NCBI GenBank assembly: GCA_032718475.1
Contig: JAUCBJ010000323.1
Coordinates: forward strand, 1 to 50,568
Direction of reading: 5' to 3'
Length of the DNA: 50,568 nt
Origin: Nemertoderma westbladi
Lineage: Eukaryota > Animalia > Xenacoelomorpha
Below are positions 1 through 30,108 of this stretch, one piece after another (positions within the stretch are counted from its first letter, which is position 1; each line of letters opens with the position of its first letter). The notes below the pieces were generated by a model. It was not told the DNA's origin, did not search any database, and saw only the letters and a list, made by a program, of their open reading frames with translations. The position numbers and the translations under genes were made by a program.

Positions 1-816
1 GTTATGTTCCCATTTTTCGCCATAACACCGGCTTTTTGGGAAGAACTCTAGTAAACTGCTTAAATTATCGAAAGTATAAACTGTTACCTTAACTAACTCA
101 CTTAATTTAACTGCATTAATCATATTGTTTGTACTGTTATTTTACTGTCAGTTATTAATTGTATCTATTTGTTGATGGAAATATTGCTCTTTGGAGAATA
201 CGGATAAATCACCCAAAATTCCCAATTTTCTTGATACACTACAGGTTAGAGAGACGGGCTATATATAACAATTGCGATTTATATTAATGTGGTGTGTATT
301 GAATCTAATGTTATTTAGTAGACCCTACATGAGTCAATTACTGCTCTCTTTATGTGTGATCAAATATACTGATGGTCGGCAGAATAGTGTGTATGATTGT
401 GATTGGTAACAAAGTATTTCCTAAAGAATACGCTTTATACTTTAATCATAAGCGGTATCGTTGCGTTTTAGTATAAGTCTTAGTTCTGTTTAAATAGATA
501 GAGCGCCACGTCCTAAAGGAACTGTTAATATTTCCCGAAAGCCAATAATATCTGTCAGGAATTAATTATTAACGATCTGTCGAATAATACAGTAAGTTTA
601 CGCTGCAACCTTACACTGCAATAATAAAATTTAAGCATCCGAATTCAGCCTCCCGGGTGTAGATCCATCGGGTGAATGATCGCGCATGGGCTGACTTCGG
701 CTAATGTTTTGCGTATTAGCATAAAATATTGTCGTATGCTAAAGGTGTTTTAATTAACTAAAAGACATATAAATTTTGGCAGGTTAAACTGCTAAAGGTC
801 TTCAAAAGCGCGAACA
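1..816 (+). mobile_element. 3' part of an LTR of the B/C Bel/Pao family (element D; 3' LTR or solo LTR) inserted into the LINE RT
   Basis: Collinear with the LTRs at 21128-21859 and ~46120-46893 (e.g. gccacgtcctaaaggaactg; ttggcaggttaaactgctaaaggtc). Ends ...gcgcgaACA at 816, exactly where LINE RT homology stops. Expected TSD is taatc (817-821). Confidence 0.85.
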
Positions 817-3343
817 TAATCTCTTGTACAGTAGACAGCGATTTGCTAATGACTACAGTTTGACCTCTGTCTGACAGGTAGGACTTGAACCAGTCTATAG
901 AACCTACACCCATCAGGCCTAACTTACCAAGCAGAATTTCGTGATCTACAGTATCGAAAGCCTTTTGTAGGTCCAACATTACCATACCAGTATATAAACC
1001 CTTTGCGTTATTACATCTAATTGTATCAGTTAAGTTAATAAGGCAGGTGTCTGTAGAATATGATTTACGAAAACCGGACTGAAGTTCATAGATCAGATTT
1101 AGCCTACTAAGATGTGCCTCCAGCTGTAGAAAAACAGAACGTTCTAGAATTTTAGATACAATACTTAAGATACTAACAGGTCTGTAATTACAGGGTTCTA
1201 CTTTACTATTCTTTTTATACAGAGGAACAACCTTAGCTAATTTCAGTTCGTCTGGTACTACATTATCTACGATAGAGTAATTAATAATAAAAGTAATAGG
1301 CACTTTAAGTACTTCAGCACCATCCTTAAGAAAACGGGCAGGTATTAGATCTAGACCGGTACTTTTTGAGGCTGATAGGCTAAGTAGATTTTTAAAAACG
1401 AAATCCTCAGAAACGGGTTTTAAAAATAACTTTTCTGAATTTTGTAACTTTTCTAAATAAAAATTATTTAGAGTTTCGGACCCTATACTATATTTATTAC
1501 TTGATAACGGTAATTTCTTAACTAAATTAGAGGCAACATTAGTAAAATAATTATTAAATAAATTACTAACTAGAGTATGATCATGAATCAGCTCACCGTT
1601 ATCTTGCAGAACAATATTCGATTTAGATTTAAGGTTTTTATAACCTAAAGATTTTAGGGTAGACCATAGACTTTTTGGATTATCTTTATTCTCACTTATT
1701 TTGTTGTACAAATATTCAGATTTAGCTTTTTTTATTTCCCGTTGGACAAGGTTTCTATATTTGCAGTAATTATTATAATCAGCTAAAACACGGTATTTCC
1801 TAAATTTATACAAATAGTTATCTCTTTCTCTGATATTACTAAGAATACCCGAGGTCATCCAGGGCTCAGTGCGTTGTTTAAGACTAATTTCTTTAATTGG
1901 TGCTACAGTATTAAGTGCCTTTAAAAATATATCTTTAAAAACAGTGTACGCAAGGTTAATGTCAGCGGCCTTAAAACAGGGTTCCCAGTCAGAATTAACT
2001 AACAAACTTAAAAAGCGTTCCTTGCTGTAATTTTTCATAGACCTAACTGTTACTGTTTTATGATCCCCGAAAAAAGATTTGTGTGTCTTTCTTGTGCAAA
2101 AAACTATAAAATGATCGCTTAGACCTATAGGTAAAACCCCAGATTGAGAAATAATATTGGTATTATTACAAAGGATGTGGTCTAGTAAAGTAGAAGTTTT
2201 ACTAGTAATTCTGGTAGAATCTCGAATAATTTGTTTTAAACCAAACAAATTTAAAATACTTTGGTACTGTTTACAGATGGGGGATGCTTTGTGATGGTAA
2301 CAGATATTAAAATCACCTAAGAAATATATTTCACAGTTTGACCTAAGATTACATAAAATTGTATTTTCAAAATTTTGCAAAAAATCTGATTGTTTAGGGG
2401 GCCGATATAAAGTACCGATTAAAATAGGTTTAGTTTTAGGAAGTAAAAGTTCCACCAGTAAAACTTCGTCACAAGTCTCTAAATCTTCCCTACGATTAAA
2501 CGCCAAATCACATCGAATGTAAGTACAGACACCACCACCGTGTCTGTCCCTATCCTTACGTAAAACTACGTAATTATCAATATAAATTTCTCCATCAGAA
2601 ACACTATCATCGAGCCAAGTTTCAGAGATTGTTAAAACTGCTGGGTTGGATTTATTGATTAAAATACGAATTTCGGAAAGTTTTGGAAGCAGAGATCGTG
2701 CGTTTAAGTGCAAAAAATGCAGACCTTTTTTCTTAAAAAAATTAAAAGTTTCACTCTCAGCATCACTTGGAGTTTGCAGAGGCGATGTGAGAAATGAATC
2801 GTCGGTTTCTGATTCTAAAATTGTATCATGAAAGGGAAGTTCGGTAAAAATACAGCTATTGCAGAGAAAACTTGGTTCAAGATTGTTTCTGGTGGAGAAT
2901 AAATTACTGCGTTTCCTACGGTAACATTTTAAATGTACAAATGTGTCACAACTCTCGCATTGGACGATCTTACTCCGAGAGTTTGTTCCTCGTTGACAGA
3001 CGGGACAGTTGATCTTCGGGGCCCGCGTCCTGCTGGGTCCTGGGTTGGTCTCAATATCCCCAGCCAGAGACAGTAGACAGAGTTTAGCGATTAGGCCTCT
3101 AGATCGTGGAGAGGTGACCCAAGATCTTCTTCCCCGACGAGAGCAGTAGAGGCTAAATCCACTCGTCGACCACATATCCGTCGATTCGGCGCGGCAGTTC
3201 GAAACGGTAGCGACAGGGTGTTCCGCAAACCAGTCCAATACGGGTATTGGGTGGGTTGCAGGGTTACCCCGCGGATCGGATGGTTCTGCCACAACGAAAC
3301 GACCCAGAACGATGAAAACTGTGGAGATTAAGAGCGGGGACAT
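817..3343 (-). CDS. LINE polyprotein: ~100-aa leader, 2A-like peptide, PHD finger, APE endonuclease, N-terminal half of RT (interrupted)
   Basis: 2A: [17 protein letters not shown]: CPVC..QCESC..H..C..CNSC. APE: HLNARSL, ISETWL, YRPP, GDFN, LDHI, SDH. RT: [33 protein letters not shown]. Stops just before the expected GVPQGS motif; the last ~19 aa of the ORF-track protein are read from the inserted LTR. Confidence 0.9.
3035..3100 (-). other. 2A-like ribosomal skipping (StopGo) peptide
   Basis: Encodes ..[17 protein letters not shown], matching the D(V/I)ExNPGP consensus with a Leu-rich upstream segment. Confidence 0.9.
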
Positions 3344-3485
3344 TGTGCTGTCTGGCTGTAGTCTGACTCAGGGATAAAAACTGTATAGGCCTAGTACCGG
3401 TATCTTTCTTGGTCTTATTGTCGGCAGGCCTACAGCTCTACATACTCTGCATATCTCTATCATTATTATATCGACATATCTCGTC

Positions 3486-3738
3486 ATTATTTGTCAGGAG
3501 TGATTTTACTTTCTCTATGCAACGTGTGCGGCCTGGGGTTGTGTTGCTGTTACGTATGGCGCGTTGTAAAGCAGCTTTGGCTGTGTTAGTAATCATATTG
3601 CGGTTGCGGGGGTGATGGCTGCGATAGTTTAGTATAATACCCACATTGCTGGGTTTAACATACAGTTCGAAATCGATATGGCCGTGGTCATTGACCGTTG
3701 TTAAAACGTCTAAAAGGGGAGACTAGAGTAAGACTTCT
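3486..3738 (-). pseudogene. Fragment of a Penelope-like element RT C-terminal (thumb) region
   Basis: Minus-strand translation PLLDVLTTVNDHGHIDFELYVKPSNVGIILNYRSHHP...RAIRNS...KSLLTNN resembles the PLE pattern LPFLDV...YRKPT...L.Y.S.HP...RA...L..NGY. Confidence 0.7.
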
Positions 3739-4148
3739 TGTAAAGGCTTTTGCGGATCTAGCTAGTTATTTTCCCCGCAAAGTACTCTGTAGGTGTTTTA
3801 ACGGACATAAAAAGCCGTTTCCTTACTGTACCGGTGTTTTAGTGGACATAAAAAGCCATTTCTTCTGTATGTGTACTTTAGCGGACATAACTAGCGATCT
3901 TATGTCGCAATAATCCAAAATCCTCTTGATACAGTGTAGTTACCATGACGACATCTAACAGCTGATATGTACACGTGTAACTTTTTCTTTGTTCTTTGTT
4001 CGTTCTTTGTTCGGTCGACCAATCAGAGCGTTTTTTGACTCTGTGTTGGAGATTGTATACAGAAACTCATGCAATTCAGTCAGTATGTGTATTTTGTCCA
4101 CAGCCAGAAGACCGGCTTTGGAATTTCTGTGTTTCAGGCTTTAGCCAA
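3739..4148 (+). repeat. Element B 5' LTR, first part
   Basis: Near-identical to 44651-45060. Confidence 0.9.
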
Positions 4149-4277
4149 TATAGAATTATATTCCCTAAATGCCGTGGATTTTCAAAATTTTATTTTATTC
4201 GAATCAACTTTGCTAAAAGATTACATTGAGTCCTCATTTGTATTTGCTATTCCTATTTGAACGGTGATTAGTCAAGT

Positions 4278-4362
4278 GGTTCAGTAGCTCAGTCGGTAGA
4301 GCGTTGGAAATTATATGTAGTGTGTATTGAGTTCGAATCCTAGTAGGTGCGAATTATTTTTT
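4278..4362 (+). ncRNA. tRNA-derived Pol III-type unit in the A LTR (A box, B box, T-run); second copy at 19358-19442
   Basis: TAGCTCAGTCGGTAGAGC (A box with intact D-arm) at 4285, GTTCGAATCC (B box) at 4331, TTTTTT at 4357-4362. Acceptor and anticodon stems do not pair, so it is not a functional tRNA. Confidence 0.65.
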
Positions 4363-4429
4363 GTGCAGAATTTCAACTCATTTAAATTGACCGCTACAAA
4401 TTAATTGCATTTGCTCGAAGTAAGATTAA

Positions 4430-4580
4430 CCAATGAGACTGTAGTTATTAGATTGTAACCAATGTCGTACAAGTTATATATTTGCTGGACCAATAGCTAT
4501 CTTTAAAAACCTGTTAGAACCTATAGAACAATCGAGAATTTTCTCGATTGATTGCAGCACAAATTTGCTATATAAAGGTG
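4430..4580 (+). promoter_or_regulatory. Putative Pol II promoter in the A LTR: three CCAAT boxes ~30 bp apart plus a TATA box
   Basis: ccaat at ~4430, ~4459 and ~4490; tatataaa at 4569. Confidence 0.45.
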
Positions 4581-6043
4581 CGATTTCGTTCATTAGTTAT
4601 ATATTCTTATATCTCAGTTATCTATCGTATACATCACTATTACTTCTATTCTGTTTATTGTATAATAGTCATTGTTTGATTTTGTAATAAAAGTTAGAAA
4701 TACTTGTCACATCTGCCCTTTTCTATCTGTTTTATCATGCTTCACCACGGTGAACTCAATTGAGGGACAGGATGGCTGGCTAGACATTGGGCCACAGCAA
4801 TGAACGGGAACATCAACTGAATGTAGACAGGAGACAACCCGCAATATCACTCTTAGTTATTCGCCCATCGCCTGAAAGGTTAGACAGCGTTCGATGCCTT
4901 GCTACCTAAGTATAAGACCAAAGATCGAAGGTAGAAGTAGTGACACGCTGTACGCCTAAAATTACATCTAGGGACTGTACTGTTTTAATTCAGGAAAAAA
5001 CCGCAGTAGACCTTCATATTCCTACGGGGGGAGAGCAGGCAGAGATACTAGTACGCAGATAGGACGTAGGCACACCGGTACAAAGCATACACATTGGTAG
5101 GGTGCAGCAAACTGTACGCCTAACTCTTGCTAAGTACAGGTGCGTCTGCGACTATTTGTAGTACAACGGTGTCCATTGCATTAGAACTTGTAGGCTAGGA
5201 GGGTTACTGTGTTTCACCTGAATTAGGATTGTACCGTTCAGGCGGTAGGGCAGTTTATGACTGGGCGCAAATAAATTGAGGCTATTTTGGGATACTAACA
5301 TCTACCGTGTCCCCGCCGACATCCTGATAGGAAGTTACCAGCCCACCTAGGTAACCAAAATTCTAGATAGGACGCCAGGCTAGCTATTAGTAACCGTACG
5401 GCTACTGTAGTAAACTAACACATTTCTTCTTAGTATTAGGGACCTGGTAAAATAAAATTGCCGAATTCTGGGCGTAGCATTAACCTTATGCCTGAATTTG
5501 AGTCCTGGAAATACGCAAGAGGGGAAGGAGCCTTATCATTCATGAGTATTGGACCTACAAGTTACAAAATTAGAATATTCGTAAAATGCACACCGTACCC
5601 AGTAATTATATATATGAAGGAGCAAAACTGATCTTGACGGTTCAGAATTAACACACGCGCGTTAGAAATTATTTACACCTCAAAATATATAAAAATTAAC
5701 TTTTGTCCGTACTGCGCTTTGCCCGCTAGTTAGACATCTCCAAATCTCTGCACCTAGCTAGCGTCTCTTTCGCCCAACCATATAAATCACACCGCGGCAA
5801 AGTATACGAGCCCCTTAGTCCGTCAGTGAGTCAGCCTGATTTTAGGATTCGCTGCGCGGGATTTGTTTTATCGAAGTTTGTCTGCTCGTAGACTGTTTTC
5901 TGCCTCACCGGTTATAAGGGACCAATACTGCAATATATTCGCTTACTTGGAGTTTACTGTTTTGGTGAGAAGGTCGGATTTATGATTTGATTCACAAACT
6001 TTACAGTAAGATATTGCAGGTATTGTTACTGTCTCTTCAAATA

Positions 6044-6054
6044 GTAGGAATATG
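6044..6054 (+). promoter_or_regulatory. Element A primer-binding site, non-tRNA type, complementary to LTR 5015-5025
   Basis: gtaggaatatg abuts the LTR end; its reverse complement catattcctac is at 5015-5025. No TGG. Confidence 0.75.
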
Positions 6055-8681
6055 TTTTACTGAACTACGGTTCGGTAGGACTAAAGTTATTTGAAAATTT
6101 TGTATTTTGAGGTAAAAATTTATATTTGATTAGCTAAGTGCTAATTTTTTGAAATAAAATTTGATTTGAACCGCGTGTAAAATATTTTGGAATTGAATAC
6201 CAGTGTTTAAAAAGGGTTTAAATACCATATTGTACCGGTACAAAATTTTCGTAAAAGTAAAACCTAACTCTTTTGTTTTTTCAGGATTCAGAGCTCATTT
6301 CTAGACTGTAACGGGAGCAAGACCGTGTTTAGCAAGTTTGGGAGATAGATAACTCAACAACTTTGGTTGGGATAATCGCACTTCGTCCGCAACGCTGGAA
6401 ATGGAAAAGTTCACGTCCGGTTTGTATCTGGGAATCTGTTTTTCTGGAGAATTATTGGAGTGGGTGAGTTCGAAAAGTTGCATAAATAAGTTAGGCATTA
6501 CCGTATTAGTTAAAATTTATTGTGGGTTCCACTGTCTCAAGTATTTATGCATTCCGTACGATTTCTTTGTTCATTGCTGAATTAGTCCGTATTATTGTAT
6601 TTAATTTACCTTTTGATAACGCATATCGTTATCCGATTTATTTGTTATAAAATTGGCCGCTAGACTAATTTTATTATATACTTATTCCGTGACATTTATT
6701 TGCTGTAAAATTGGCCGTTTAGGCTAATTTTATCCATCTGCTATAAAATCGGCTGGTAGGCTAATTTTATATGACTGTAATTAATACCGTTTTGATATAA
6801 ATACGGTAAATTTGATACTTTGGCACTCACTTTACTTGACTTACAACTACCGAAATGAGTGACAAACAAGACTATACGAAGAATACACCTACCGACTATG
6901 ACTCATGTGACGGAGATAAGTCAGCAGCGGAAGAACTACAGGGGAATACTCGCGAGCCTACCGAACCTACACCGTGTGCGTCACCAGTACATCCAACGGG
7001 AGTACCGGATGCCGTAGTACGAGGCGACGGCAGGACCGAGGACTTTCTAACTGTTCCGCAACCTAGATACAGGGAAACGGACATGGTAAGTTCAGTAGGA
7101 AGCCAGGAGAGTGTGGTTAGAAGCGTCGGAGGATACATGGCGCATATTACCAGGAGTATTGGGGAAGGCCAACGCATATTAGACGAGTTAACCGCTCCGA
7201 TGTCTCGATTCGAGTTCTACACCCTCCAGGTTAGAGTACAAAGTAGAGTACATAAGTCCGTAGATAACCTTATCAGTCTACAAGATCTAGCTAGACAGAG
7301 ACAGGATATGGACACTCAGCTTAGAATCCTCGAGAAGTTAACGATCGTCAGGGAGAAACTAATTCAGTTTAAGTCGACGATTAGGCAGATACAACAGGAA
7401 CAAGCGGACCAGTTGTTAGGTGAGTCAGTTTCGGACGAATTATTGCAACCCAAGGAAGAACAGGAACTGTATAGGCTAGATGGACAATTGAAACACCTGA
7501 CGGATCACTTACGCATGTGCGGTGAGGACGTCGGAGATTGGGAAACCGTGCCGGAGGCTACGAGGGAAACTTCACTCGCACAAATCGAACTGGCACCGGG
7601 GACACTAGATCAATCACTGGTGAGTATTCGCAGCGAAATTGGCGAGGTGAGTATGGCTACGTCAGAAATTGCTCGACAACAGCAGCTCTACAGACAACAA
7701 CAGGAGATGGAGGAACAAACTCAACTGCTAATGGCACAAGCAGCCGTACAAGAAGAGAAACTACGCGTTGCGAATGTTGCAAGAATCTCTCATCTGCAAG
7801 AACAAGCCGAGTTGGAAGCAGCCGAGATGGAAAGGTTAGAGTTGGACATTGCGCAACAAACGGCGGCAGCGGCAGCGGCTGAGTTAGAGCGACAAGCGGC
7901 GGCGGCAGCGGCAGCGGCAGCGGCTGAGTTAGAGCGACAAGCGGTAGTGGCTGAGTTAGAGCGACAAGCGGCGGCGGCAGTGGCAGCGGCTGAGTTAGAG
8001 CGACAAGCGGTAGTTTCAGAAGCGAGAGCCGAGATGAAAAAACGGCAAATAAAGGCTCAATCAGCTATACGACAAGCGGAGTTCGAGGCGCAACAACAAC
8101 AGACGGAACAACGCGAGAAAGAACTTAAACTTCATTTCGAACTCGAGAAGAAGGCGAGAGAATTAGCCAACGCGAAGGAAGATCTAGATCTACAAGCCCG
8201 TGATCGATCGATGAGATCTCGAGACGGACACGATTTAGACCGGTTAGAGGTAAGACACCGCCAAATTCAGGAACGAATGAAGGAAGGTTCGATAGGAGCA
8301 CCTGGGCGGGAACGACAATTAGTTAAAGACTTATGTCAAAGATTCCCTCAGGTAACTCCTATGTTTGCACCGATTACGACTAAGGAACCTGTTTCAATTG
8401 CTGGTAGTAGTAACATTTCTCCTATTCATGGTGCGACGGAACACAGGTTTGTTATTCCGGACAAGTTTACACCGCCAAGAGCAACGTCATCGCCTATTCC
8501 GAAAGTCAAGGTAAGTAACCCACCGATTACAGATCGTAGTAGTTTGTTGACTGGACCTGCACTACTGACGACTAAACAGGTGAGTCAACCTTCGACACCT
8601 AAACCTGTTACACACTACGCTTACCCAATGACGTTTAGGCCTACAAGGCCTTTAGATCCAAACGCTGTCATTCGACCACCG

Positions 8682-9088
8682 AACCAGTTTACATCGCAAT
8701 CTACGACTTCGAGGAAGACTTGTGAGCCTACCGAACAACGGAGACCAGTGGATACGCGACCGTTCAACCAGTTTACATCGCAATCTACGACTTCGAGGAA
8801 GACTTGTGAGCCTACCGAACAACGGAGACCAGTGGATACGCGACCGTTCAACCAGTTTACATCGCAATCTACGACTTCGAGGAAGACTTGTGAGCCTACC
8901 GAACAATGGAGACCAGTGGATACGTGACCGTTCAACCAGTTTACATCGCAATCTACGACTTCGAGGAAGACTTGTGAGCCTACCGAACAACGGAGACCAG
9001 TGGATACGCGACCGTTCAACCAGTTTACATCGCAATCTACGACTTCGAGGAAGACTTGTGAGCCTACCGAACAACGGAAACCAGTAGA
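8682..9088 (+). repeat. 84-bp tandem repeat (~5 copies) in A gag
   Basis: Unit encodes NQFTSQSTTSRKTCEPTEQRRPVDTRPF; ggaagact recurs at 8713, 8797, 8881, 8965 and 9049. Confidence 0.95.
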
Positions 9089-12005
9089 CGATGTTCCGAA
9101 ACGGAATGTTAGAATTCGAACGACACAACGGACGCGAGCACGTCGACCACCGTATACTGGTGACAGTAGTACTTCAAGCGAGTCGGATTACCCGAAACGC
9201 GAGGTATTTAGAACAGGAGCGGCCGACGAATATAAACGTGAGCATTCAGATAACTCCTTTATCGATAATCCTCCACAAAATACACCAACACAGAAAGCGT
9301 TACAACCAACGGACGCAATTAGTACGCAACAACTCGCCGAAATAATGCGCCCAGTTGTCAACAAGATGGCCCAGATAGAGGAACGTTTAGAAGAAACTCA
9401 AACCGATAGTTCGCGAGGTAACGAGTTCGAACACTCTAGACACCCGAAGCAGCAAAGAAAACAACCCTCGAGAAACACTTCGTATCAAGGAAAAGCGCCA
9501 AGACGAGAGAACATCAACTCGATTGCCAACCAAGGACGCGAAACTTTGAACGTGGCCGAGGAGATAGCGAAATTCGCAGCGAGACAAGGTTTACCGGTAC
9601 AACAACCACCGAAGTTTTCAGGTAACTCGAAACATTGGCACACCTTTGTAGACTACATCGAGACACAAATAGCAGCGTGCGCCTTTACATCGAGGGAGAA
9701 ATTCAACTACCTGCTACAAACACTGCACTGACGGGAGAACCGAAATGTCTAGCGGAAACCTTTGTCGGTGTACCAGATGCCTTCGAACTAGCGTATGATC
9801 GCTTAACTTCGATTTACGGAGGCACGGTGAGTATGGCTAAGTCAGTGATAGAAGAACTCTGTAAGGGGGGGGCTATAACAAAACCCGTTGACTTACTAAA
9901 ATTAGCTGACGAGATTAAGAACGCCATTACTACACTACACTCGATTGGACAACTTGACTACGCGAACACTCCGACAGTTCTATTAAAAATAATAGGAAGA
10001 TTACACCATCGACTTCGTCGGGAGTGGCGAAAGATAGAATATCAGCGAGAAGAGAGAGGCGGATTCTTGAAGTTGGAAGACGTCTACTTACTGATATCCA
10101 GAGAGGCAGTCGTTGAGACGCGTTCGAACTATACGGACCAACATATCGTGGTGGAGGGAATAACATTACCATCCTCGAACCGACAAAAACCCCAAACAAC
10201 ATCCACCAAGATGGTTACTTACGCCACATCGACCGACACCCGACAATTTTCGGACAATAATAAGGTATCCGCACCAATCGGAACCAAACAGATCCGACAG
10301 CAACTGACCACAGACTTTAGCGGGTGCCAATATTGCGAACGACTAGGTAAACGACATACTGGCCATAAACTGAGAGGTTGTCGACTATTCCGCGAATTGA
10401 ACTCGGAGGAACGACGATTACAAATACGACCATTGGACTCTTGTTGGCGGTGTACGCTACATGGACATGTCCGTAAGGACTGCCCAAATACGGACACCTG
10501 TCCTTCTTGTGGACGCAACCACGACGGCTTGCTACATACCGACAGTCATACGCCGACCAAACGCTTCACCAGGGAACACCCGGAAGCTGCAGCAAGATGC
10601 AACACAGCATACAAGGGTCGAGAGTCGAAAACAACACCGACATTCGTGACGCACATTAGAGATTGTTTCTCGGAACAATCAGGATCGTCAGACGAAGAGT
10701 CGGAAGACGACGACGTTTACTTTGATACTGGAGACGAACAACCATCGATTGCGCTTCTGACGCCTGATCAATTAAAGGGGTTTAGTATAATTCCTGTCAA
10801 GATTACTGGCACAAAAGGGAGCAAGAGGATCTACGCTATCCTGGATTCAGCCTCATCTCATAGCTACGTGGATGAGAAAGTAGCTGACGTTGTGACGGAT
10901 CTCCGACAAGGTAAGAATGTCAGTTACACCGTAAGTAGTATGCATGGACAACGTGCAATACCAGTGACACGAGTTAAGTTGAACTTAGACACTCTTCTTC
11001 CGAAATCGCAACATAGCGAAAAGGAGAGGTCTTTGTTACCCTTTAAGGATTTAACCTTTGCGGCCACAAAGGACTTTAGTAACCTACTAGGTCCTGTCCC
11101 AGAACAATCCTTGGAGGACCGTAAGTACTTCAGACACCTTGGTGTACCTGAATGTCCTGTCAATTATAGATCGGTAGCAATGCTGATCGGGACAGATCAA
11201 TTCAACCTACATCAAGTGTGGGAAACCAGACCATCGGCAGTCGTAGCGGGAAACGCATACGCCTGTAGAACGCCGATAGGGTGGTATACTCGAGCGCCTG
11301 TGCGCACACTGGATATAAGTGACGAGGAAGACGATATACAAAGTACATGTAGTTTATTAACTACAACTTCGACTCATTCCTTTTCACACGACGTAGACTA
11401 TACTACACTACAGTCAAGTTCGACAAAACATGACACGACATGTGTAGCTAGTATGATAAGTCACAAGGAGCAGCTAACCCACCAGGTGAGTTTAGAACTT
11501 GAGGAGAAGACGAGTCAGCCAGAGATTCCATCGACGACAGATCATAACGCCGGAAGGCTTGCGAGTCTACCTACACCAATAACCTCAACAATGCCCGTCG
11601 ATATCGATGACGACGCGTTAAGAAATCATCAAGTGGAACAAGCTGCATTGGACAAAGAATTAACGGAGAAGACTATCAGGTGGTTAGAACAAGATACAGC
11701 TGAACCTGGTAGCTACGAACCATGTATGTCAGAACAAGAGAAACAATCTTTGAAGATCATGGAAGATACTATCCGCCAGACGAAAGACGGACATTATGAG
11801 GTAGGGATGCTATGGTGTAACCAACGTCCTAAACTTATAAATAACTATCCGCTAGCCTTAAGACGTTTACACTCAATACGACAACGTCTATTAAAGGACG
11901 AGAAAGCCCATCTGCAGTATAATACTCAGATGGAGACGTATTTGACCAAAGGATACGCTATCCGAATGACTAACCCAGAGATAGTGACTGACCAGAAAAT
12001 ACTAC

Positions 12006-14288
12006 TTGCCAGATCACTACGTGAGACACCCCGACAAACCAGACAAAGTACGTGTAGTCAATGACTGCGCGGCTCTGTTTGAGGGAATGTCCCTCAATAG
12101 TGAGTTAATGGATGGACCAAACATGAATAATTATCTTATGGGGGTGATTATGCGCTTCCGTCAGCGTCAAGTAGCCTTTACTTGTGACGTCGAAGCTATG
12201 TTTCACCAAGTGAGAGCGTTAGAGCAAGACAGAGACAGTTTAAGGTTCCTCTGGTACCCGGAAGGAGACTTAAGTCTACCACCGGTGACTTACCAAATGC
12301 AAGTTCGCGTTTTCGGTGCCAGGGACAGCCCAAACTGTACGATGTACGCCCTAAAGCAAGCCGCTAGGGATCAGAAACATATATATGACCCAGAGATAAT
12401 TAAGATCGTAGAACGTGACTTTTATGTAGACGATGGTTTACAGAGTTGTGACACAGTAGAACGTGCTATTACAGTAGCACATCAATTACGAGACTGCTTA
12501 GCGGGCGGAGGTTTTAACTTCACCAAATTCGCCTCAAACAGTGCCGAATTGGTAGACTCATTCGGAACGACTGAGCGTGGAGGTGGTGACATTGACCTAG
12601 AGTTCGAACCACTACCGACGACCAAGGTGTTGGGGCTCTTTTGGGACCCAAACACGGACAACTTTCGAGTGAAGGTGAGACTGGACACTCAAGAAAACAC
12701 TCTGACAAAGAGATCCTGCTTGTCAAAATTGAGTCGATTGTTCAATCCATTAGGATTCATCAGTCCAATAATACTGCAAGCCAGAATTTATATGCGCAGT
12801 ATTTGGAAGGATGGACTGACATGGGACGAGCCGATCTCATCAGAACAAGTGGACTTATGGAAAACCTGGGAGGCAGAATTATCTTCGCTAGAGGATTATT
12901 CCATACCCAGAGTCTACTTTCCATTACAAACGACGTTTCCTGACAACTTGGAATTACATTGTTTTTCCGACGCCAGTGACAACGGCTTTGGTGTGGCAGC
13001 GTACTTGCGCAGACAAGTAGACTCAGAAGAGTTCGATGTTTCGCTCATTACTTCTAAGGCTAAGACCATGCCTACTAAGTATATGACGACACCACGAGCT
13101 GAGTTACAAGCCGCAACCCTGTCAACCACAATCGTGAACCTTATACAGACGGAACTACAGTCAAGTTTACAGATATTTTATTGGACTGACGCGACGTTGG
13201 TTTTATTTTACATAAACAACGACACACTTGAATTCAAGACATTCGTAGCTAACCGTCGCGCAGAAATTCTAGACCGTTCAATAAAGGAAGATTGGCGACA
13301 TTGTCCCGGACCACAAAACCCAGCCGATATTGCGTCAAGAGGAATGATGCCTGAGGAATTCTGTAAACCGGAGAACAAAGAATTTTGGCAGCACGGACCA
13401 CAATTCTTGCAAAGATCAACACTACATTGGCCGCCACTATACGACAACAAGTCTAACACTATCCCTAAAGACGCGGAAATTAAAAAACCAAAGAAAGGGA
13501 AAGCAAAGAAAAGGACGACGGCAAAACTCAAGAAAAAACCGATGGCGAAATGCAATGATATAACTTCAAAGGTCAAGAACGGAAGACTTGCGAGCCTTTC
13601 TACACCAGACATATCGCCAGATGGTCAACCAGACGCGTTACTAGACGGTCAACCAGACACTTTGCCAGACATAGCACAAAATGTTCTACCAGACACTAGT
13701 AACATATTGACAAATAGTAAAGCCGCAGTTTCTCTATTGGAGCGGCCTTCTATTGACAAACAACCAGACGCGTTACTAGACGATCAACCAGACGTTTTGC
13801 TAGACACGTCACTAGATATTTCGCCGGATGTTCCGCGAAACATTTTACCAGACATGTCACAAAATGTTCTACCAGAAACTAGTAACATATTGACAAATAG
13901 TAAAGCCGCAGTTTCCCTATTGGAGCGGCCTTGTATCGACAAACTACCAAATTTGACACACTTGAGCAACAATAAGCACAGTGAAACCTCATGTATTACA
14001 GATGTGGGTAGTACCTACGCTAATGTAAATACAGGTGTTACTTTGCGCTCAAGAGACATACCAAACTTGCAACCTATGGTGAGACCCGGGATTAATATCG
14101 GCAGAAAAATAAGTTTACCGAAACCCAGTGACCCCATAGAGTTCAAACCACCATTAACGATCGACTTACAAAGTACTGACAACCAAGGTAAGAAAACAAA
14201 GAAGGACAAATTACTTGTAGACCCGGACGGATCAACAGTCAACAAGGGAATACCTACCGGCGGACCCGTGGGCCCTTTTAGTAAATAA
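12006..14288 (+). CDS. RT-RNase H segment of A pol
   Basis: YVDD catalytic motif, Pao-type RNase H motifs, then a low-complexity linker with an ~183-bp duplication. Confidence 0.9.
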   Translation: MPDHYVRHPDKPDKVRVVNDCAALFEGMSLNSELMDGPNMNNYLMGVIMRFRQRQVAFTCDVEAMFHQVRALEQDRDSLRFLWYPEGDLSLPPVTYQMQVRVFGARDSPNCTMYALKQAARDQKHIYDPEIIKIVERDFYVDDGLQSCDTVERAITVAHQLRDCLAGGGFNFTKFASNSAELVDSFGTTERGGGDIDLEFEPLPTTKVLGLFWDPNTDNFRVKVRLDTQENTLTKRSCLSKLSRLFNPLGFISPIILQARIYMRSIWKDGLTWDEPISSEQVDLWKTWEAELSSLEDYSIPRVYFPLQTTFPDNLELHCFSDASDNGFGVAAYLRRQVDSEEFDVSLITSKAKTMPTKYMTTPRAELQAATLSTTIVNLIQTELQSSLQIFYWTDATLVLFYINNDTLEFKTFVANRRAEILDRSIKEDWRHCPGPQNPADIASRGMMPEEFCKPENKEFWQHGPQFLQRSTLHWPPLYDNKSNTIPKDAEIKKPKKGKAKKRTTAKLKKKPMAKCNDITSKVKNGRLASLSTPDISPDGQPDALLDGQPDTLPDIAQNVLPDTSNILTNSKAAVSLLERPSIDKQPDALLDDQPDVLLDTSLDISPDVPRNILPDMSQNVLPETSNILTNSKAAVSLLERPCIDKLPNLTHLSNNKHSETSCITDVGSTYANVNTGVTLRSRDIPNLQPMVRPGINIGRKISLPKPSDPIEFKPPLTIDLQSTDNQGKKTKKDKLLVDPDGSTVNKGIPTGGPVGPFSK

Positions 14289-14456
14289 AAACCTTCCAAA
14301 TTCTCCATTGACTTACCTGATGACGTCACAAATACTTACGTCGACCGTATTGTAAACTTAACAGATTCTTGGACAAACGCTTGCCGAAAATTAGCGTGGA
14401 TTGTACGTTTTGTACAATACGTTAAAGGCAAACGCGACTTTACACGTCGACTTACA

Positions 14457-15848
14457 TTGACTGAGATTGACAGGTGTGAAATTAAATTAATTCGCCATTA
14501 CCAACTGCGATATTTCGCACGCGAATTCACATCTATAAATCAAGGTCAACCAATCAAGTCGTCACCAATATTGAGTTGGAGTCCGATAATTTATAATGGC
14601 TTAATTTGTCATAAATCTCGGCTTCAAAATATTGACTTTAATACTGACTTTAGGTACCCAATAATAATACCGCAACATCACGAGTTACAACGTGCAATGA
14701 TACTGGACGCACATTTACATCTGAAACACGCTGGAAGACACCACTGTCTTTCCTACTTACGTACAAGATTTGTATTAAGTAGACCCAGTAAAGCGTTAAG
14801 TTCAGTGACACGTACGTGTATTATTTGTAAAAAGGTACACTCTAGAATAGGTACCCAAGAAATGAGTGAACTTCCACAAGCACGACTTCAAGCATTCAGA
14901 CCACCTTTCACAGAGACTGGAATTGATTGCTTTGGTCCCATACATACGAAACGTGGACATATACTAGTAAAACGCTGGGGACTGATTTTCACATGTATGT
15001 CCAGTAGGGCAGTTCATATTGAACGTGTGATGGATCTTTCCACCAACGCGTTTATACTAGCATTGCGGCGATTTATCGCCAGACGCGGACTAGTGAAATG
15101 CTTGTACTCAGACCAAGGGACAAACTTTGTTGGTGCTCGAAATGAGATTGCTAGAGCCTTTAAGAAATTAGATCATGATCAAATCTCAAACGAACTACGT
15201 CCTTACAAGATTGTTTGGAAGTTTAATCCTCCAGATAGTCCATGGAGAGGCGGAGTCTGGGAGAGATTGATCAGATCTATCAAAACGGCAATGGCAAAGG
15301 TCATTCCAGTAAACCACATATTGACAGACGACCAACTGACAACACTGTTTGTTGAAATCGAGGCAATACTAAATACTAGACCAATAGTATTAGTACCCGA
15401 TGACAAACAATCCCAGTTTGCTTTAACACCAGCACACCTGCTTATGCAGGCACCGACTACTTTGACGCCTATTTCTTTTCCAATAGAAGGCGATAGCTAC
15501 GGTAGAAAAGCGTGGAAAATCACGCAACTACTAGCTAACAAATTCTGGGAAATATGGCAAAACCATTATTTGCCCTCTATTTCTGCCAGAACAACATGGT
15601 ACAATAACACCCGCGCATTAAAGCCGGGAGATCACGTGCTGTTAGCGGAAGTGAATCTAAAAAGACGCTTCTGGATAACAGGTGTAATTTTAGCCACACA
15701 TCCATCTATGGATGGAGTGACAAGAACTGTGACGGTACGGACAATTGACGGTCGTACAGTAGACAGACCGACTCAACGTCTCGTACTTCTTGAAGAGACT
15801 CGTAACGAGTCTGGAGACTACAAATCTCCAACAAATGTTAGTAAATAA
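14457..15848 (+). CDS. DDE integrase segment of A pol
   Basis: HHCC zinc motif; D (GIDCFGP), D (SDQGTNF), E (WERL); Pao-type C-terminus RPTQRLVLLE. Confidence 0.92.
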   Translation: MTEIDRCEIKLIRHYQLRYFAREFTSINQGQPIKSSPILSWSPIIYNGLICHKSRLQNIDFNTDFRYPIIIPQHHELQRAMILDAHLHLKHAGRHHCLSYLRTRFVLSRPSKALSSVTRTCIICKKVHSRIGTQEMSELPQARLQAFRPPFTETGIDCFGPIHTKRGHILVKRWGLIFTCMSSRAVHIERVMDLSTNAFILALRRFIARRGLVKCLYSDQGTNFVGARNEIARAFKKLDHDQISNELRPYKIVWKFNPPDSPWRGGVWERLIRSIKTAMAKVIPVNHILTDDQLTTLFVEIEAILNTRPIVLVPDDKQSQFALTPAHLLMQAPTTLTPISFPIEGDSYGRKAWKITQLLANKFWEIWQNHYLPSISARTTWYNNTRALKPGDHVLLAEVNLKRRFWITGVILATHPSMDGVTRTVTVRTIDGRTVDRPTQRLVLLEETRNESGDYKSPTNVSK

Positions 15849-16407
15849 TTAGGAGTTTACAAATAGATTTCCACATACCTGTACACCATAGTAAGGACAG
15901 CGGTAGAATTCCATTGTCTTTATATGTGAACATTGAGGGTAGTACCCTTATGTGTCACATAGGAGCGGGATTTGTAGGTATAAGAAATGGAATTCTACTT
16001 GGAACTCACAATATTGAGACATTTTCGAAATTTTAGACAATCCATTTGGATTCGAAAATTTTTAAAATTTTCTCCAGTGAATAGATTTCAGGGTACACTG
16101 TACAGTCGGGTGGAACTTAAAATTAGAGAAACAAGAGAGGAAGACTTGCGAGCCTTTCTTAAAATTTTAATTAAATTTTACACGGTCTTGTTTCAATAAG
16201 TTACGTCAAAATAGACTTCCCTATATTTATTACTAACTCTTGACTGCTTATTTTCTGATAATAGTTTGGGATCAAAAAGTGAGTATTTTAGACTCACAGC
16301 CAGTTTAGCCCAAATTCGTTTTTTATTTCGGCAAAAAATTTTAGATAAGAAACAGTGTGTCATTAAAGAAACCCTAGATCTTAGGCTATGGGTAGGAGGT
16401 TAGAGCG

Positions 16408-18376
16408 TTGTCGAGCCAAAAGGGCAGACGAAAACTCTCACGTCTCCTCACAACTAACTACAAACTCTGTTGTATTCCCTCTAGTAGTAATGATTATGTA
16501 ACTACACCTCAAATTATGGAGAAGGAGATACATGGAGAGCCGAGATGGGGATATGATATCCAAGAGGAAGCAGCAGCGCCATTCGAAAGATTTGGAGCCA
16601 AAGACTACACTATATTTGGTATAAAAGAATTATCAGAAAGTACTGCGAAACTCGCGAGAACTAAATATGACTCGAATGTATTAAAAAGAAGGCAAAACGC
16701 ATTAAATGAAAGAATCGAAAGTTTGCGCAAAACCTTCAATGAACTTTACCCGTACGACGCTTTGTGTGATACGGGAGACATTAGCGAAGACCCCGATACT
16801 GAAATTAGTCGTTTGTATCATACCATGCAATACCTAAAGGCGCACGAACCTATGCCCGCGGTACGCGATGAATTCGATGGAATGCACCTTTACAGACGAA
16901 CTCGAGGGGACGATAGAGAAACCAAGGAAGCATTTTCAGTTTATAAACTTTATTATCAATGCGGTTCTTGTATGCGCGAACAACGAAATGCGATTCCAAT
17001 GCGTTTGAATAAGGAAAATCCCGAACCGATATTGGCGAGGTGTTCGAACCATCAACAACTACGCTACCAGGAAGGAGGGTATCCTTTATCAAATCCATAT
17101 CATTCGTTTGCTATCACCGGACCAAAGGCGGGAGAAACTGTCGTTTACCCACCCAAGGTTGTTGAACCCGATGCATTTGAACTTACGCTGGACGAGGCGA
17201 ATCAGTCAACCCGCGAAAAGAAAGAAGCTCTTAGCCTATACAGAGCCTACAAGGTTTTCGAGAAAGGTGAGATGGAAGAATGGGGCGGAAGACTCGCGAG
17301 CCTACCTTACCATTGGACGTCACACGATCAAACTTCAGCTAAGGAGATGACACCGGAAATTTTCGAAAGTATAAACTTTGCCCAAAATGTTCAATCGTAT
17401 CACATATGGTGAATTTGACCGTTTTCGAACTGAAAAGCGGAATAAGGGAGCTTGGTTAACCGTCGCATGGGCATACCGAGCCGCGTTTTACCACAAACGT
17501 ATACGAGCGAGCGTATTCGAGGAAGAGGAGATCCTAGAGGCGACAAATATACCAGCCACTCCGGTTGCGCCGTCTGCACGTCACCCTCGGGAGGACGGAC
17601 AGGGTAGGATCATAAGGGCCGACTAAGTTATTAGTTTATTAATTATTTACTATTTATACTGTAATTACGTTTTATAATAAATTGTTCTGTACATTACATC
17701 TTTATCGTTGAGTCGGGCATTGTCACGCTCTCGGTAAAGTTGTACATGTACATAGTGTAATTACGTTTTATATTGGTTTTAGGTTAGCGTAGTGTAATAT
17801 TGTATTTGTAACCAAGTAACATAAAGGACCCCCTTGGAAATAAGCTGCAAAGCTTTAGGGGTAATCCTATATGTTATGTTGGACAATACCTCTATACCGG
17901 TACATTGTTTGGTGTATTTGTTATTGTTTTTACATAATGTATAAATAAATCTATCTATCTATAGGGTCCAGAAAGTGAGCCAACAATTAAAGAAGTCTAT
18001 TAATATAGAAGAACGCAAGGGAGTTGAGCCGACTATTCGAATTACTCGGGATACGGTATCGCTTCCTAGAGAACCAACAGGAGGATCGGGACATACACCA
18101 GCTGATCAAAAGGGGGCGCAAGCTACTCTTGGGTCTGCGTCGTCCGCTTCTCGCGCGTTCCCAGACGTTTTACCAACTGTAGTGACAACTGATCGGTCAC
18201 GAGGAATCGGTCGAGGTTTTGGGATGCCAAATAGACGAATTTGCGAGGAAATAGTCGCACCGTCTCTCAACGTCCAAACGAAACCAGTGACTCGCCCCAC
18301 GAGTCCCATATCGCGAGCAAAGTCACCTGTGCGCAGTTTTCGAGGACGTGGCAGGGCTCGATCAACTAAGCGATAA
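16408..18376 (+). CDS. Element A accessory ORF(s) downstream of integrase, function unknown; possibly spliced or frameshifted (16408-17412, 17378-17626, 17975-18376)
   Basis: 334-aa ORF with YYQCGSC...RCSNH. An AT-rich intron-like gap (~17605-17964) ends in tctatag. The last segment is basic and Ser/Pro/Arg-rich. Confidence 0.6.
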
Positions 18377-18481
18377 AAGGGAGGGCAAGGGTGGACGGAA
18401 GACTCGTGAGCCTTTCTTGTGAATTTTATGATTTATTTGAGTTATATATTTAATTAGTAAGTTTTGTATTCTGGAAGAACT

Positions 18482-18600
18482 CATATTTAGTAAGATTCAT
18501 ATTTAGTAAGATTTATATTTAGTAAGATTTATATTTAGTAAGATTTATATTTAGTAAGAATTTGTATTCAGTAAGAATTTGTATTTTGCAAGATTTATAT
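18482..18600 (+). repeat. 16-bp AT-rich minisatellite in the A 3' untranslated region
   Basis: atatttagtaagattt-type units in tandem. Confidence 0.8.
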
Positions 18601-19220
18601 TTTATATTTGTGTTTATTCCGAACTTATGCAATTTATATTGTTCCGAATATTATGCAATTTATATCTTATAAGCAGTATTTGTATTTACAGTGAAATAGA
18701 AAGTAAGAGTAGATGGAAGACTCGTGGGCCTTTCTTATAGTTTCATTTGTAAAGTGTTATATTTTGTATTTAGAAAGTTTTATAGTTAGAAAGTTTTGTA
18801 CTTAGAAAGACTCATATTTGTAATTATTCCGAACTTATGCAATCTACATTTAGGCACGAAAGTATTTGTAATTATTTGAATTTATGCAATATTTGAGATG
18901 CAATAGTAGATGGAAGACTCGCGAGCCTTTCTTATGATTTTCATTTATTTGTATTTGTAATTGTTTGAATTTATGCAATATTGAGATGCAATAGATTTAT
19001 ATTGGTGAATTTAATTTAGATTTATATTGTACTTACTTAGTAAAGCCTTAAATATGTAAAGTTTGAATTTGTAATTATTTTGTATCGAATCATTATGTAG
19101 AAAGGAAGTATTGTTTGAAATTTAATTTGTAATATATGTAAGTACGCCCTAAGTATTCTATAATTTGATTGATTATTGGTGAAAACCGTATATTTTATGC
19201 ACGATAATATCCTGTTTTCA

Positions 19221-19228
19221 TGGAGCGG
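19221..19228 (+). promoter_or_regulatory. Element A polypurine tract
   Basis: tggagcgg immediately before the 3' LTR; same core as the B PPT. Confidence 0.75.
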
Positions 19229-21122
19229 TATAGAATTATATTCCCTAAATGCCGTGGATTTTCAAAATTTTATTTTATTCGAATCAACTTTGCTAAAAGA
19301 TTACATTGAGTCCTCATTTGTATTTGCTATTCCTATTTGAACGATGATTATTCAAGTGGTTCAGTAGCTCAGTCGGTAGAGCGTTGGAAATTATATGTAG
19401 TGTGTATTGAGTTCGAATCCTAGTAGGTGCGAATTATTTTTTGTGCAGAATTTCAACTCATTTAAATTGACCGCTACAAATTAATTGCATTTGCTCGAAG
19501 TAAGATTAACCAATGAGACTGTAGTTATTAGATTGTAACCAATGTCGTACAAGTTATATATTTGCTGGACCAATAGCTATCTTTAAAAACCTGTTAGAAC
19601 CTATAGAACAATCGAGAATTTTCTCGATTGATTGCAGCACAAATTTGCTATATAAAGGTGCGATTTCGTTCATTAGTTATATATTCTTATATCTCAGTTA
19701 TCTATCGTATACATCACTATTACTTCTATTCTGTTTATTGTATAATAGTCATTGTTTGATTTTGTAATAAAAGTTAGAAATACTTGTCACATCTGCCCTT
19801 TTCTATCTGTTTTATCATGCTTCACCACGGTGAACTCAATTGAGGGACAGGATGGCTGGCTAGACATCGGGCCACAGCAATGAACGGGAACATCAAAGGA
19901 ATGTAGACAGGAGACAACCCGCAATATCACTCTTAGTTATTCGCCCATCGCCTGAAAGGTTAGACAGCGTTCGATGCCTTGCTACCTAAGTATAAGACCA
20001 AAGATCGAAGGTAGAAGTAGTGACACGCTGTACGCCTAAAATTACATCTAGGGACTGTACTGTTTTAATTCAGGAAAAAACCGCAGTAGTCCTTCATATT
20101 CCTACGGGTGGAGAGCAGGCAGAGATACTAGTACGCAGATAGGACGTAGGCACACCGGTACAAAGCATACACATTGGTAGGGTGCAGCAAACTGTACGCC
20201 TAACTCTTGCTAAGTACAGGTGCGTCTGCGACTATTTGTAGTACAACGGTGTCCATTGCATTAGAACTTGTAGGCTAGGAGGGTTACTGTGTTTCACCTG
20301 AATTAGGATTGTACCGTTCAGGCGGTAGGGCAGTTTACGACTAGGCGCAAATAAATTGAGGCTATTTCGGGATACTAACATCTACCGTGTCCCCGCCGAC
20401 ATCCTGATAGGAAGTTACCAGCCCACCTAGGTAACCAAAATTCTAGATAGGACGCCAGGCTAGCTATTAGTAACCGTACGCCTACTGTAGTAAACTAACA
20501 CATTTCTTCTTAGTATTAGGGACCTGGTAAAATAAAATTGCCGAATTCTGGGCGTAGCATTAACCTTATGCCTGAATTTGAGTCCTGGAAATACGCAAGA
20601 GGGGAAGGAGCCTTATCATTCGTGAGTATTGGACCTACAAGTTACAAAATTAGAATATTCGTAAAATGCACACCGTACCCAGTAATTATATATATGAAGG
20701 AGCAAAACTGATCTTGACGGTTCAGAATTAACACACGCGCGTTAGAAATTATTTACACCTCAAAATATATAAAATTAACTTTTGTCCGTACTGCGCTTTG
20801 CCCGCTAGTTAGACATCTCCAAATCTCTGCACCTAGCTAGCGTCTCTTTCGCCCAACCATATAAATCACACCGCGGCAAAGTATACGAGCCCCTTAGTCC
20901 GTCAGTGAGTCAGCCTGATTCTAGGATTCGCTGCGCGGGATTTGTTTTATCGAAGTTTGTCTGCTCGTAGACTGTTTTCTGCCTCACCGGTTATAAGGGA
21001 CCAATACTGCAATATATTCGCTTACTTGGAGTTTACTGTTTTGGTGAGAAGGTCGGATTTATGATTTGATTCACAAACTTTACAGTAAAATATTGCAGGT
21101 ATTGTTACTGTCTCTTCAAATA
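19229..21122 (+). repeat. Element A 3' LTR
   Basis: Direct repeat of 4149-6043, followed by TSD gccaa. Confidence 0.95.
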
Positions 21123-21127
21123 GCCAA

Positions 21128-21859
21128 ACATTAGTAGGCTTAGGTCATAGAAACGTATAACTGTTATCAAACCATAAACACCTCATTTTTACTGCTATTT
21201 ACTGTCGGTTATTAATTATATCAGTTGATGGAATATTATTATATTGGATAATATCGATAAATAATTATAAAACCCCAAATCTTCTTGATATACTGAAGGT
21301 AAGAGACCGGTTACATATAACAATTGCGACTTACATTATATTGGTTTTGGAGTGAATCTAATGCTATTTCATAGGCACTACATGTGTCGGTTGTTGTTCT
21401 CTTTATATGTGACTAAAATTAGTGAAGGTCGGCAGATCAGTGTGCAGTATTGTGCGGTAGTGTGCATGATTGTGACTGATAACAAAGCATCTCCTAAAGA
21501 ATGCGCTTTATACGTGAATCAATAGCCATCCCGTTGTGTCTAGTGTAAGTCATAACTCTGTTTACATATTTAGAGTGCCACGTCCTAAAGGAACTGTTAA
21601 TATTTCCCGAAAGTGAATAATATTTGTCAGAAATTATATATTAACGATCAGTCGAATAATACAGTAGGCCTACACCGCAATAAGGTCAAAGCTTCCGAAT
21701 TCAGTCTCCCGGGTATATCCAGCGGGTGAATGGTCGCGCATAGACTGGCTTCGGCTAATGTAGTGTATCAAATACTCGTCATAGGCTAAAGTCGATTTAT
21801 AATCTAGAAGACATCTAAATTTGGCAGGTTAAACTGCTAAAGGTCTGAAAGCGCAAACA
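21128..21859 (+). repeat. Element B 5' LTR, second part
   Basis: Continues the LTR after A; matches 45061-45718; ends ...gcgcaaACA, like 816 and 46893. Confidence 0.88.
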
Positions 21860-29303: not shown

Positions 29304-30108
29304 CAGCGTCTGGAGTGGGTGTGTGACCATATTATTTTATATTTGTTTTTATTATTTTATATTTATGTATGTATTATTATGTAATTTTATTATAATCATT
29401 TTCTTTAATTTTATTTAGTAGAATGTTATTTTAGCGATTATTTAGTAGATTAGTGCAATATATATTAGTGTTTATTACTTAATTACTTATATATTATATA
29501 TATACTGCGACAGCGAGAAATAATTATTTTTCTCTTTCCTTACTGTCCGTATTACATTATAAATACGTGACTACAGTAAGATGAAATGTCCGTACTTATT
29601 AAAGTACAATAAAGCTCCTACTATATTCAAGTATTATTGGTAAAGTAGAGTATTAGGAATGCAAAATTCAGATCCTCGTGTCTCGGCTAAACCAAGCTCT
29701 GGGTAGACCTTGGAAACGACTTGCCTCTTCTCACTGACATTGCTTCGTGCGATATTGCTCTCATACCGTATATTAAATAATACATATAGTAGCGTGATGT
29801 CCCTTTAACAGTAGCGTAAAACGCAAAATAAATCTGTTAAACCCTTTGACAATCTGTAATTCTAGTCGATTAAGATATCGCGGCACCCACCGATATACTT
29901 AAAAGACAATAATTCTAGAATCAGTGGTTAACGTCCCCAGACATGTTCTGGAATAAACCGGTGCCCATCTTAAATATTAACTATTAATATTTATAAAATC
30001 TGTCAAACAGATACAATAGAGTAACTACTTACAACTCTAGAAAATTAACTCTAGAAAATATATAAATTAAAATCTGTCAAAATTTAGATCCTTTAAAATT
30101 CTAGTCAA

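Follow-up and report, generated by a model that had tools for sequence, protein, structure and literature searches.

The window, by which we mean the whole stretch of 50,568 nucleotides of Nemertoderma westbladi DNA that was analysed, contains element A (4149-21122; Table 1), which is a young Bel/Pao retrotransposon, and several other elements. Self-comparison of the window gave 15 differences between the two LTRs of A (99.2% identity). Element A was inserted in the 5' LTR of element B, and the empty site is preserved in the 3' LTR of B, which fixes both the GCCAA duplication and the TAT...ATA termini of A. TA replaces CA at both LTR ends of A (4149-4151, 6041-6043), and the right LTR end is TA, not CA, also in several relatives (L011, L040, L054). 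The gag-pol region of A is interrupted by stops near 8927 and 14288 and by frame changes near 9626-9731 and 11988-12064, and its gag carries 84-nt tandem repeats (8589-9092 of the window). Pfam recognized Peptidase_A17, DUF5641 and Integrase_H2C2, the integrase lies after RT-RH, and the YVDD and FSDAS motifs are present in pol. The LTRs, polypurine tract and target-site duplication are all as in Bel/Pao elements.

Table 1. Positions of features of element A in the window
Feature	Position	Strand	Remarks
Left target-site duplication GCCAA	4144..4148	.	identical to 21123-21127 and to the empty site, which ends at 45060
5' LTR	4149..6043	+	1895 nt; termini TAT...ATA; from self-comparison of the window
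Promoter-like cluster, upstream	4430..4600	+	three CCAAT (4430, 4459, 4490) and TATATAAA at 4569
Weaker rival complement of the PBS	4599..4610	+	12 pairs including 3 G-U
AATAAA before the primer	4686..4691	+	the 3' LTR copy would need read-through; also in a contig of organism B
Candidate GT..AG intron	4879..6284	+	excises primer and PBS; possible mRNA for translation; weak
Candidate self-primer CATATTCCTAC	5015..5025	+	overlaps initiator-like TCATATT
AATAAA pair (5270, 5451), downstream of the primer	5270..5456	+	candidate end of R
Putative primer-binding site GTAGGAATATG	6044..6054	+	abuts the 5' LTR; TGG absent
gag-pol region	6855..15848	+	five ORF pieces
Additional open frame of 338 codons	16396..17412	+	no Pfam match
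Polypurine tract GGAGCGG	19222..19228	+	abuts the 3' LTR; the 3' LTR of B is preceded by the same motif
3' LTR	19229..21122	+	holds a second copy of the 11-mer at 20095-20105
Right target-site duplication GCCAA	21123..21127	.	5 bp

In the rest of the window, the 3' LTR of B adjoins the start of the 5' LTR of element C (45719-45720), and B has no clear target-site duplication. The pol region of B is apparently replaced by five units of ~2.2 kb, each with 146-nt tandem repeats (30000-41500), and a single short RT-RH-like match was found in this element (28668-28805). Partial element D adjoins a non-LTR retrotransposon ORF on the minus strand (758-3367), which encodes a PHD finger, an endonuclease and a partial RT. 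B, C and D have neither TGG nor a Watson-Crick complement of 10 nt, spliced or unspliced, at their LTR ends, and the matches with G-U pairs in C and D are mutually inconsistent. These three elements share a conserved post-LTR sequence starting with CCCGGG (21700-21760, 46722-46780 and 645-705), and a stem is predicted across their LTR end, with one compensatory pair among the three sequences. The post-LTR sequence may resemble antisense 7SL RNA, a likeness for which Rfam gave no support. An HDV-like ribozyme behind the LTR end of B, C and D was considered and dropped, because no loop fitted and Rfam was blank.

The initial annotation had proposed that no TGG-type primer-binding site (PBS) follows the 5' LTR of A and that the abutting 11 nt are instead the perfect reverse complement of a stretch inside the LTR. 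LTR mapping confirmed that TGG is absent directly 3' of the 5' LTR, and GTAGGAATATG, which occurs only once in the window, is the exact reverse complement of CATATTCCTAC. ARAGORN detected no tRNA in the whole window, and Rfam gave no credible match at 3700-7000 or 600-780. Of 740 positions in the leader, 4 had an unbroken complement of at least 11 nt in the LTR of A, as had 6 of 12,400 in the internal region, corresponding to a chance of 0.05-0.5% per position. When spliced junctions were also permitted, 6 of 60 six-offset windows reached 11 because the LTR of A is long, and no spliced junction in this LTR was better than the unbroken 11-mer. Given these chance-level counts, the match in A alone is suggestive and not decisive. 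Another stretch, TATTCCTATTTGAA in U3 of A (4248-4261), is complementary to the LTR end plus the PBS with a 3-nt gap (9 nt computed, the remainder read by eye).

The RT-RH piece of A has 1242 protein relatives with the same domains, the best of them 44% identical, and the named ones are from molluscs, cnidarians, echinoderms, a hemichordate and fish. A 37-sequence alignment led to 78 metagenome loci (from the best 80 of 475 confirmed stretches), and no locus was found in the viral contigs scanned. About 44 of the 78 fetched loci lacked the LTR end or the interior and were not fully testable; the curated set drawn from the same best 80 stretches consists of 30 loci in 25 families with a readable LTR end. 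The LTR ends of 7 loci were fixed by divergence between the 5' and 3' LTRs, and the other 23 were picked by eye at ACA or ATA after the pattern was known. TGG follows the LTR in none of the 30 curated loci, and no tRNA-type PBS was seen in the subset of the remaining loci that was inspected.

The initial scan for unbroken complements was noisy with few matches, and it led to a junction pattern that was spotted by eye. In 23 of the 25 families, the PBS pairs over 10-15 nt (mode 11) with the LTR of the same element. All seven loci with divergence-fixed LTR ends show such pairing of 10-15 nt, six spliced and one unbroken. At least 10 pairs at offsets 0-5 were found in 28 of the 30 curated loci, compared with 22 of 1860 control starts downstream. 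Covariation of PBS and LTR across Bel/Pao families, which had been suggested as a check, is borne out by the comparison of this 23/25 with 19 of 858 when a PBS was matched to the LTRs of other families, several of these 19 being between relatives with similar PBS. Without the hand-set ends, 22 of 60 loci reached at least 11 against 26 of 300 control windows; lenient blind scans had a high background. A strict blind scan for spliced complements of at least 10 nt gave 20 of 58 loci against 4 of 58 in the control, and 15 of these 20 lay at the curated ends and 5 elsewhere. The two families that missed (L043 and L063) reached 7 nt, and the gap in L043 is 37 nt, which is below our 50-nt limit.

In 22 of the 25 families, the complement is present only across a GT..AG intron in the LTR, and two families found later make 24. 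Read along the LTR, the PBS complement begins directly behind the 3' splice site and resumes before an upstream GT donor. The junction pairing of these 24 families amounts to 10-15 pairs (exactly 11 in 13 families), of which 3-8 nt come from exon 2 and 4-10 nt from exon 1, and it starts at an offset of 0, 2, 3 or 4 nt from the LTR end in 12, 3, 6 and 3 families, respectively. The donor is GTAAGT in 13 of the 24, the introns are 67-426 nt long, and the primer ends in AC in 17 families, as in A, and in AT in 6. There are 20 distinct PBS 10-mers among them. A[AT]TAAA is located within 110 nt downstream in 18 of the 24; two others have it inside the intron, and one has it upstream at a distance of up to 150 nt. 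In 8 of the 24 (L007, L010, L015, L016, L020, L026, L027, L057), the paired block is immediately preceded by GGAC, GGAT or AGAC, and this motif may be inherited or may be a start-site element.

Further matches were found after the pattern was known. L005 and L014 are the nearest testable relatives of A, and the PBS of L005 matches the LTR of its sibling L014 over 14 nt across a 141-nt intron; L005 is also the one locus with a TGG start, which continues as this 14-nt junction match. L041 has 11 nt and L056 has 11 nt unbroken. Half-matches were seen by eye in L023, L032 and L044, whose contigs carry only one of the splice sites, and the match of L066, also read by eye, is confined to the exon-2 side.

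An unbroken complement like that of A is found in L040, L056 and the 3' LTR of L035. L040 differs from L010 by the precise absence of the GT..AG intron, so that the same family occurs with and without it; splicing and subsequent reverse transcription are the best explanation. The contig of L035 combines an acceptor-bearing part of a 5' LTR (1-326) with an intron-less 3' LTR (6694-7103), by recombination or as an assembly chimera. In a FastTree tree of 94 rows (L073 left out, and built without named Bel/Pao reference elements), junction families fall on either side of the midpoint, and those with an unbroken complement are dispersed. A groups with L005, L014, L018, L060 and an Oculina protein on a long branch (1.28) whose place is unsure, so its intron loss is inferred.

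The start of transcription in A needs separate consideration. The initial annotation placed it at 5015-5016, with the caveat that the CCAAT/TATA cluster suggests another start near 4600; both this cluster and the initiator-like TCATATT are present in the sequence. Among the 24 junction families, a pyrimidine-purine dinucleotide stands at the 5' limit of the pairing in 21, compared with 45% in the flanks (nominal p 2e-5, post hoc and among related families), and it is also found in L035, L056 and A. Moreover, folding of A RNAs predicted the primer helix with a probability of ~0.97 when they start at 5005-5016, and six RNAs with starts from 4595 to 4990 lacked it, though global folds of RNAs of 1.1-1.5 kb are unreliable and give only a hint. 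These points make a start at 5015 plausible. On the other hand, a start near 4595-4600 behind the upstream cluster is likely, and the TATA boxes in six junction families lie 15-203 nt from the paired block, none of them ~30 nt before it. One contig of run X4 (n=1) joins 4878 to 6285 at GT..AG with a shorter side of 22 letters, in a run whose type we guess to be DNA. If this were a splice joint, it would imply that a second, upstream start is used too; it is a weak sign. U3 of A also holds tRNA-like boxes A (TAGCTCAGTCGG) and B (GAGTTCGAATCC) with a T run behind them (4285-4340), possibly a Pol III promoter or an insulator; ARAGORN and Rfam called no tRNA there.

Other copies of A are represented in five runs (X1, X3, X4 and X5 among them), which cover part of the stretch as contigs and are none of them recorded as RNA. 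Since all of the data are contigs, transcript starts and ends are not visible in them. The only variant listed in the 11-mer at a 1% threshold is 5017 T>C (~20% of the depth in X1, 25% in X3 and 94% in X4), and none is listed at 5018-5025. X5 has no contig across 4940-5100. In X1 and X3, contigs retain the stretch from 6043 onward, which there follows a different U5 end of 26 letters (joint at 5980-6043). There are loose ends at 6052 in an X3 contig and at 4718 in the organism B contig that carries the AATAAA of 4686.

These comparisons establish that PBS and LTR are complementary, that the match is specific to each family, that a GT..AG intron splits it and that exact intron-less variants exist. 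The proposal of the initial annotation that this lineage self-primes is well supported by the 23 of 25 families, the 20 PBS sequences and the lack of TGG, and its pairing was correct, whereas the splitting of the complement by an intron in most relatives had been overlooked. We consider it rather probable that the lineage of A, a broad group of Bel/Pao elements of aquatic animals, is self-primed, with a primer that is put together by splicing in most families and lies ready-made in A after loss of the intron. Transcription would start at the 5' boundary of the paired block, leaving an exon 1 of 3-10 nt. The cap-proximal intron of the capped RNA would be spliced in the 5' LTR and usually retained in the 3' copy, and the retained 3' copy would pass to both new LTRs, so that the progeny inherit the intron. 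The splice junction would anneal to the PBS, and RNase H would cut 3-8 nt into exon 2, at the end of the duplex, in a Tf1-like manner. R would then extend from this cut to the nearby downstream poly(A) signal, and the strong-stop DNA would transfer to R. Occasional splicing of the 3' copy would generate intron-less elements such as A. In A itself, 5015-5016 would be the start of the genomic RNA, and a spliced mRNA devoid of primer and PBS would come from a second promoter farther upstream. It also seems probable that the spliceosome licenses replication through removal of the LTR intron and that intron-less offshoots such as A escaped this control. Some facts stand against this explanation: 23 of the 30 LTR ends were chosen with the pattern already known, L043 and L063 miss, L066 matches on one side only, the TATA boxes are not ~30 nt before the paired block, the 11-mer of A carries a common variant at 5017, AATAAA 4686 lies upstream of its primer, A has a strong upstream promoter, and the neighbouring elements B, C and D lack both TGG and such a complement. 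First exons of 3-10 nt are also unusual.

The same pairing may be read in other ways. The primer might act in trans: a short spliced RNA, made from any of the LTRs (or a second genome copy), would bind an unspliced genomic RNA at its PBS and be trimmed there, and the genomic RNA of A could then start near 4599 and end near 4710. Such a primer explains the inheritance of the intron in 24 families without further assumption, the short RNA would result from the poly(A) signal that closely follows the acceptor in 18 of the 24, and AATAAA 4686 and the upstream promoter of A are consistent with it. It does not predict the sharp length of 11 nt or the initiator-like dinucleotide at the pairing limit, and the Tf1 precedent acts in cis according to the available part of PMC7175516. 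We regard priming in trans as unlikely, though it agrees with the DNA evidence almost as well as the cis model, and DNA alone does not separate the two. It is improbable, in our view, that the pairing is instead a structural switch for packaging, export or splicing control, with priming by a fragment of a host tRNA or by some other RNA of the host. Such priming would suit the ICTV account of the family as tRNA-primed (PMC8742986) and the half-tRNA priming known in Ty1/copia (PMC6317226, as far as the available part goes), and tRNA-type PBS were judged here by the presence of TGG. A switch fits poorly with 20 PBS 10-mers in 24 families that each follow their own LTR, with pairing that begins 0-4 nt from the LTR end, where minus-strand synthesis must start, and with the lack of TGG in all 30 curated loci, the TGG of L005 running on into its junction match.

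Two further possibilities concern A only. A transcript from the TATA promoter might supply the primer with its first 12 nt (4599-4610), and R would then end after AATAAA 4686. This complement lies exactly 30 nt behind TATATAAA and gives 12 pairs when G-U is allowed, its helix is predicted for an RNA starting at 4595, and the resulting poly(A) distance of 76 nt agrees with the relatives. We nevertheless find this very improbable, because three of the pairs are G-U, one of them at the priming end, the duplex reaches -9.6 against -14.3 kcal/mol, 6 of 148 control starts also attain 12 pairs, and 4599-4610 differs in other copies whereas 5018-5025 has no listed variant. That the 11-nt match of A is a mere coincidence seems hardly credible: many windows were scanned at the per-position rate given above and 1 of the 11 positions (5017) is polymorphic, but the length, the offset and the AC at the end of the primer (found in 17 of 24 families) are the same as in the relatives, and there is no alternative PBS.

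If the splice-assembled self-primer is real, the textbook view of tRNA priming in Bel/Pao would be overturned for a large lineage, self-priming would have arisen one more time, and splicing would be tied to reverse transcription in a new way. The host would gain one control point (splicing) and lose another (tRNA fragments). The failure of PBS-based annotation to find anything in these elements would be explained as well. For every family, this explanation also makes exact predictions of the junction, the length of the primer and the cut site. In the open literature (subscription journals, Repbase reports and supplements being outside the scope), we found no report of self-priming or of a splice-made primer in Bel/Pao. 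A term search of the main text of PMC3118150 and PMC554778 found neither tRNA nor priming, and the available parts of PMC3601003, PMC8220671, PMC5443660 and PMC5445492 contain nothing on self-priming of Bel/Pao.

Finally, we compare A with known systems. Cer7 of Caenorhabditis elegans, also a Bel/Pao element, has reportedly been proposed to encode its own primer RNA, which is said to be a tRNA-like RNA in the internal region and not an exon junction of the LTR. According to the ICTV profile of Belpaoviridae (PMC8742986), the PBS spans 18 nt and fits tRNA-Arg or tRNA-Gly, the LTRs measure 0.2-1.2 kb and the genomes 4.2-10 kb; this agrees with the initial annotation that Bel/Pao elements are described as tRNA-primed. 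A resembles this family in the order Gag-PR-RT-RH-IN, Peptidase_A17, DUF5641, the LTRs, the polypurine tract and the 5-bp duplication, and differs from the profile in its LTRs of 1.9 kb, its length of 17 kb and its TA...TA ends. It also lacks, as judged by TGG, the host-tRNA-type PBS of 18 nt, which is part of the ICTV description and not a sequence-level criterion of the taxon. The initial annotation named only the Tf1/sushi group as self-priming and omitted the plant Ty1/copia elements TAR (Houba, Osr-1), for which the available part of PMC6317226 predicts self-priming from complements of at least 10 nt at 0-5 nt from the LTR end. TAR belong to another superfamily and have a contiguous complement according to the same part, and the prediction was a test of the same kind as that applied to A. 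As far as the sources were available, Tf1/Tf2 and Tj1 of fission yeasts self-prime from RNA of ~11 nt derived from their own LTR, without tRNA (PMC7175516, PMC4600332), and the Tf1/sushi and Tcn1 chromoviruses of Ty3/gypsy self-prime as well (PMC6317226). The start site and the RNase H cut were demonstrated for Tf1, whereas A and its relatives are known from sequence alone. Moreover, unlike in Tf1, the loop of A is ~1 kb and the complement in most of its relatives is split by a spliceosomal intron. Like the Tf1/sushi elements, A has a PBS of ~11 nt that abuts the LTR and is complementary to its own LTR. Its Pol is that of Bel/Pao and not of a Ty3/gypsy chromovirus, and thus A would work like the Tf1/sushi elements without being a member of that group.
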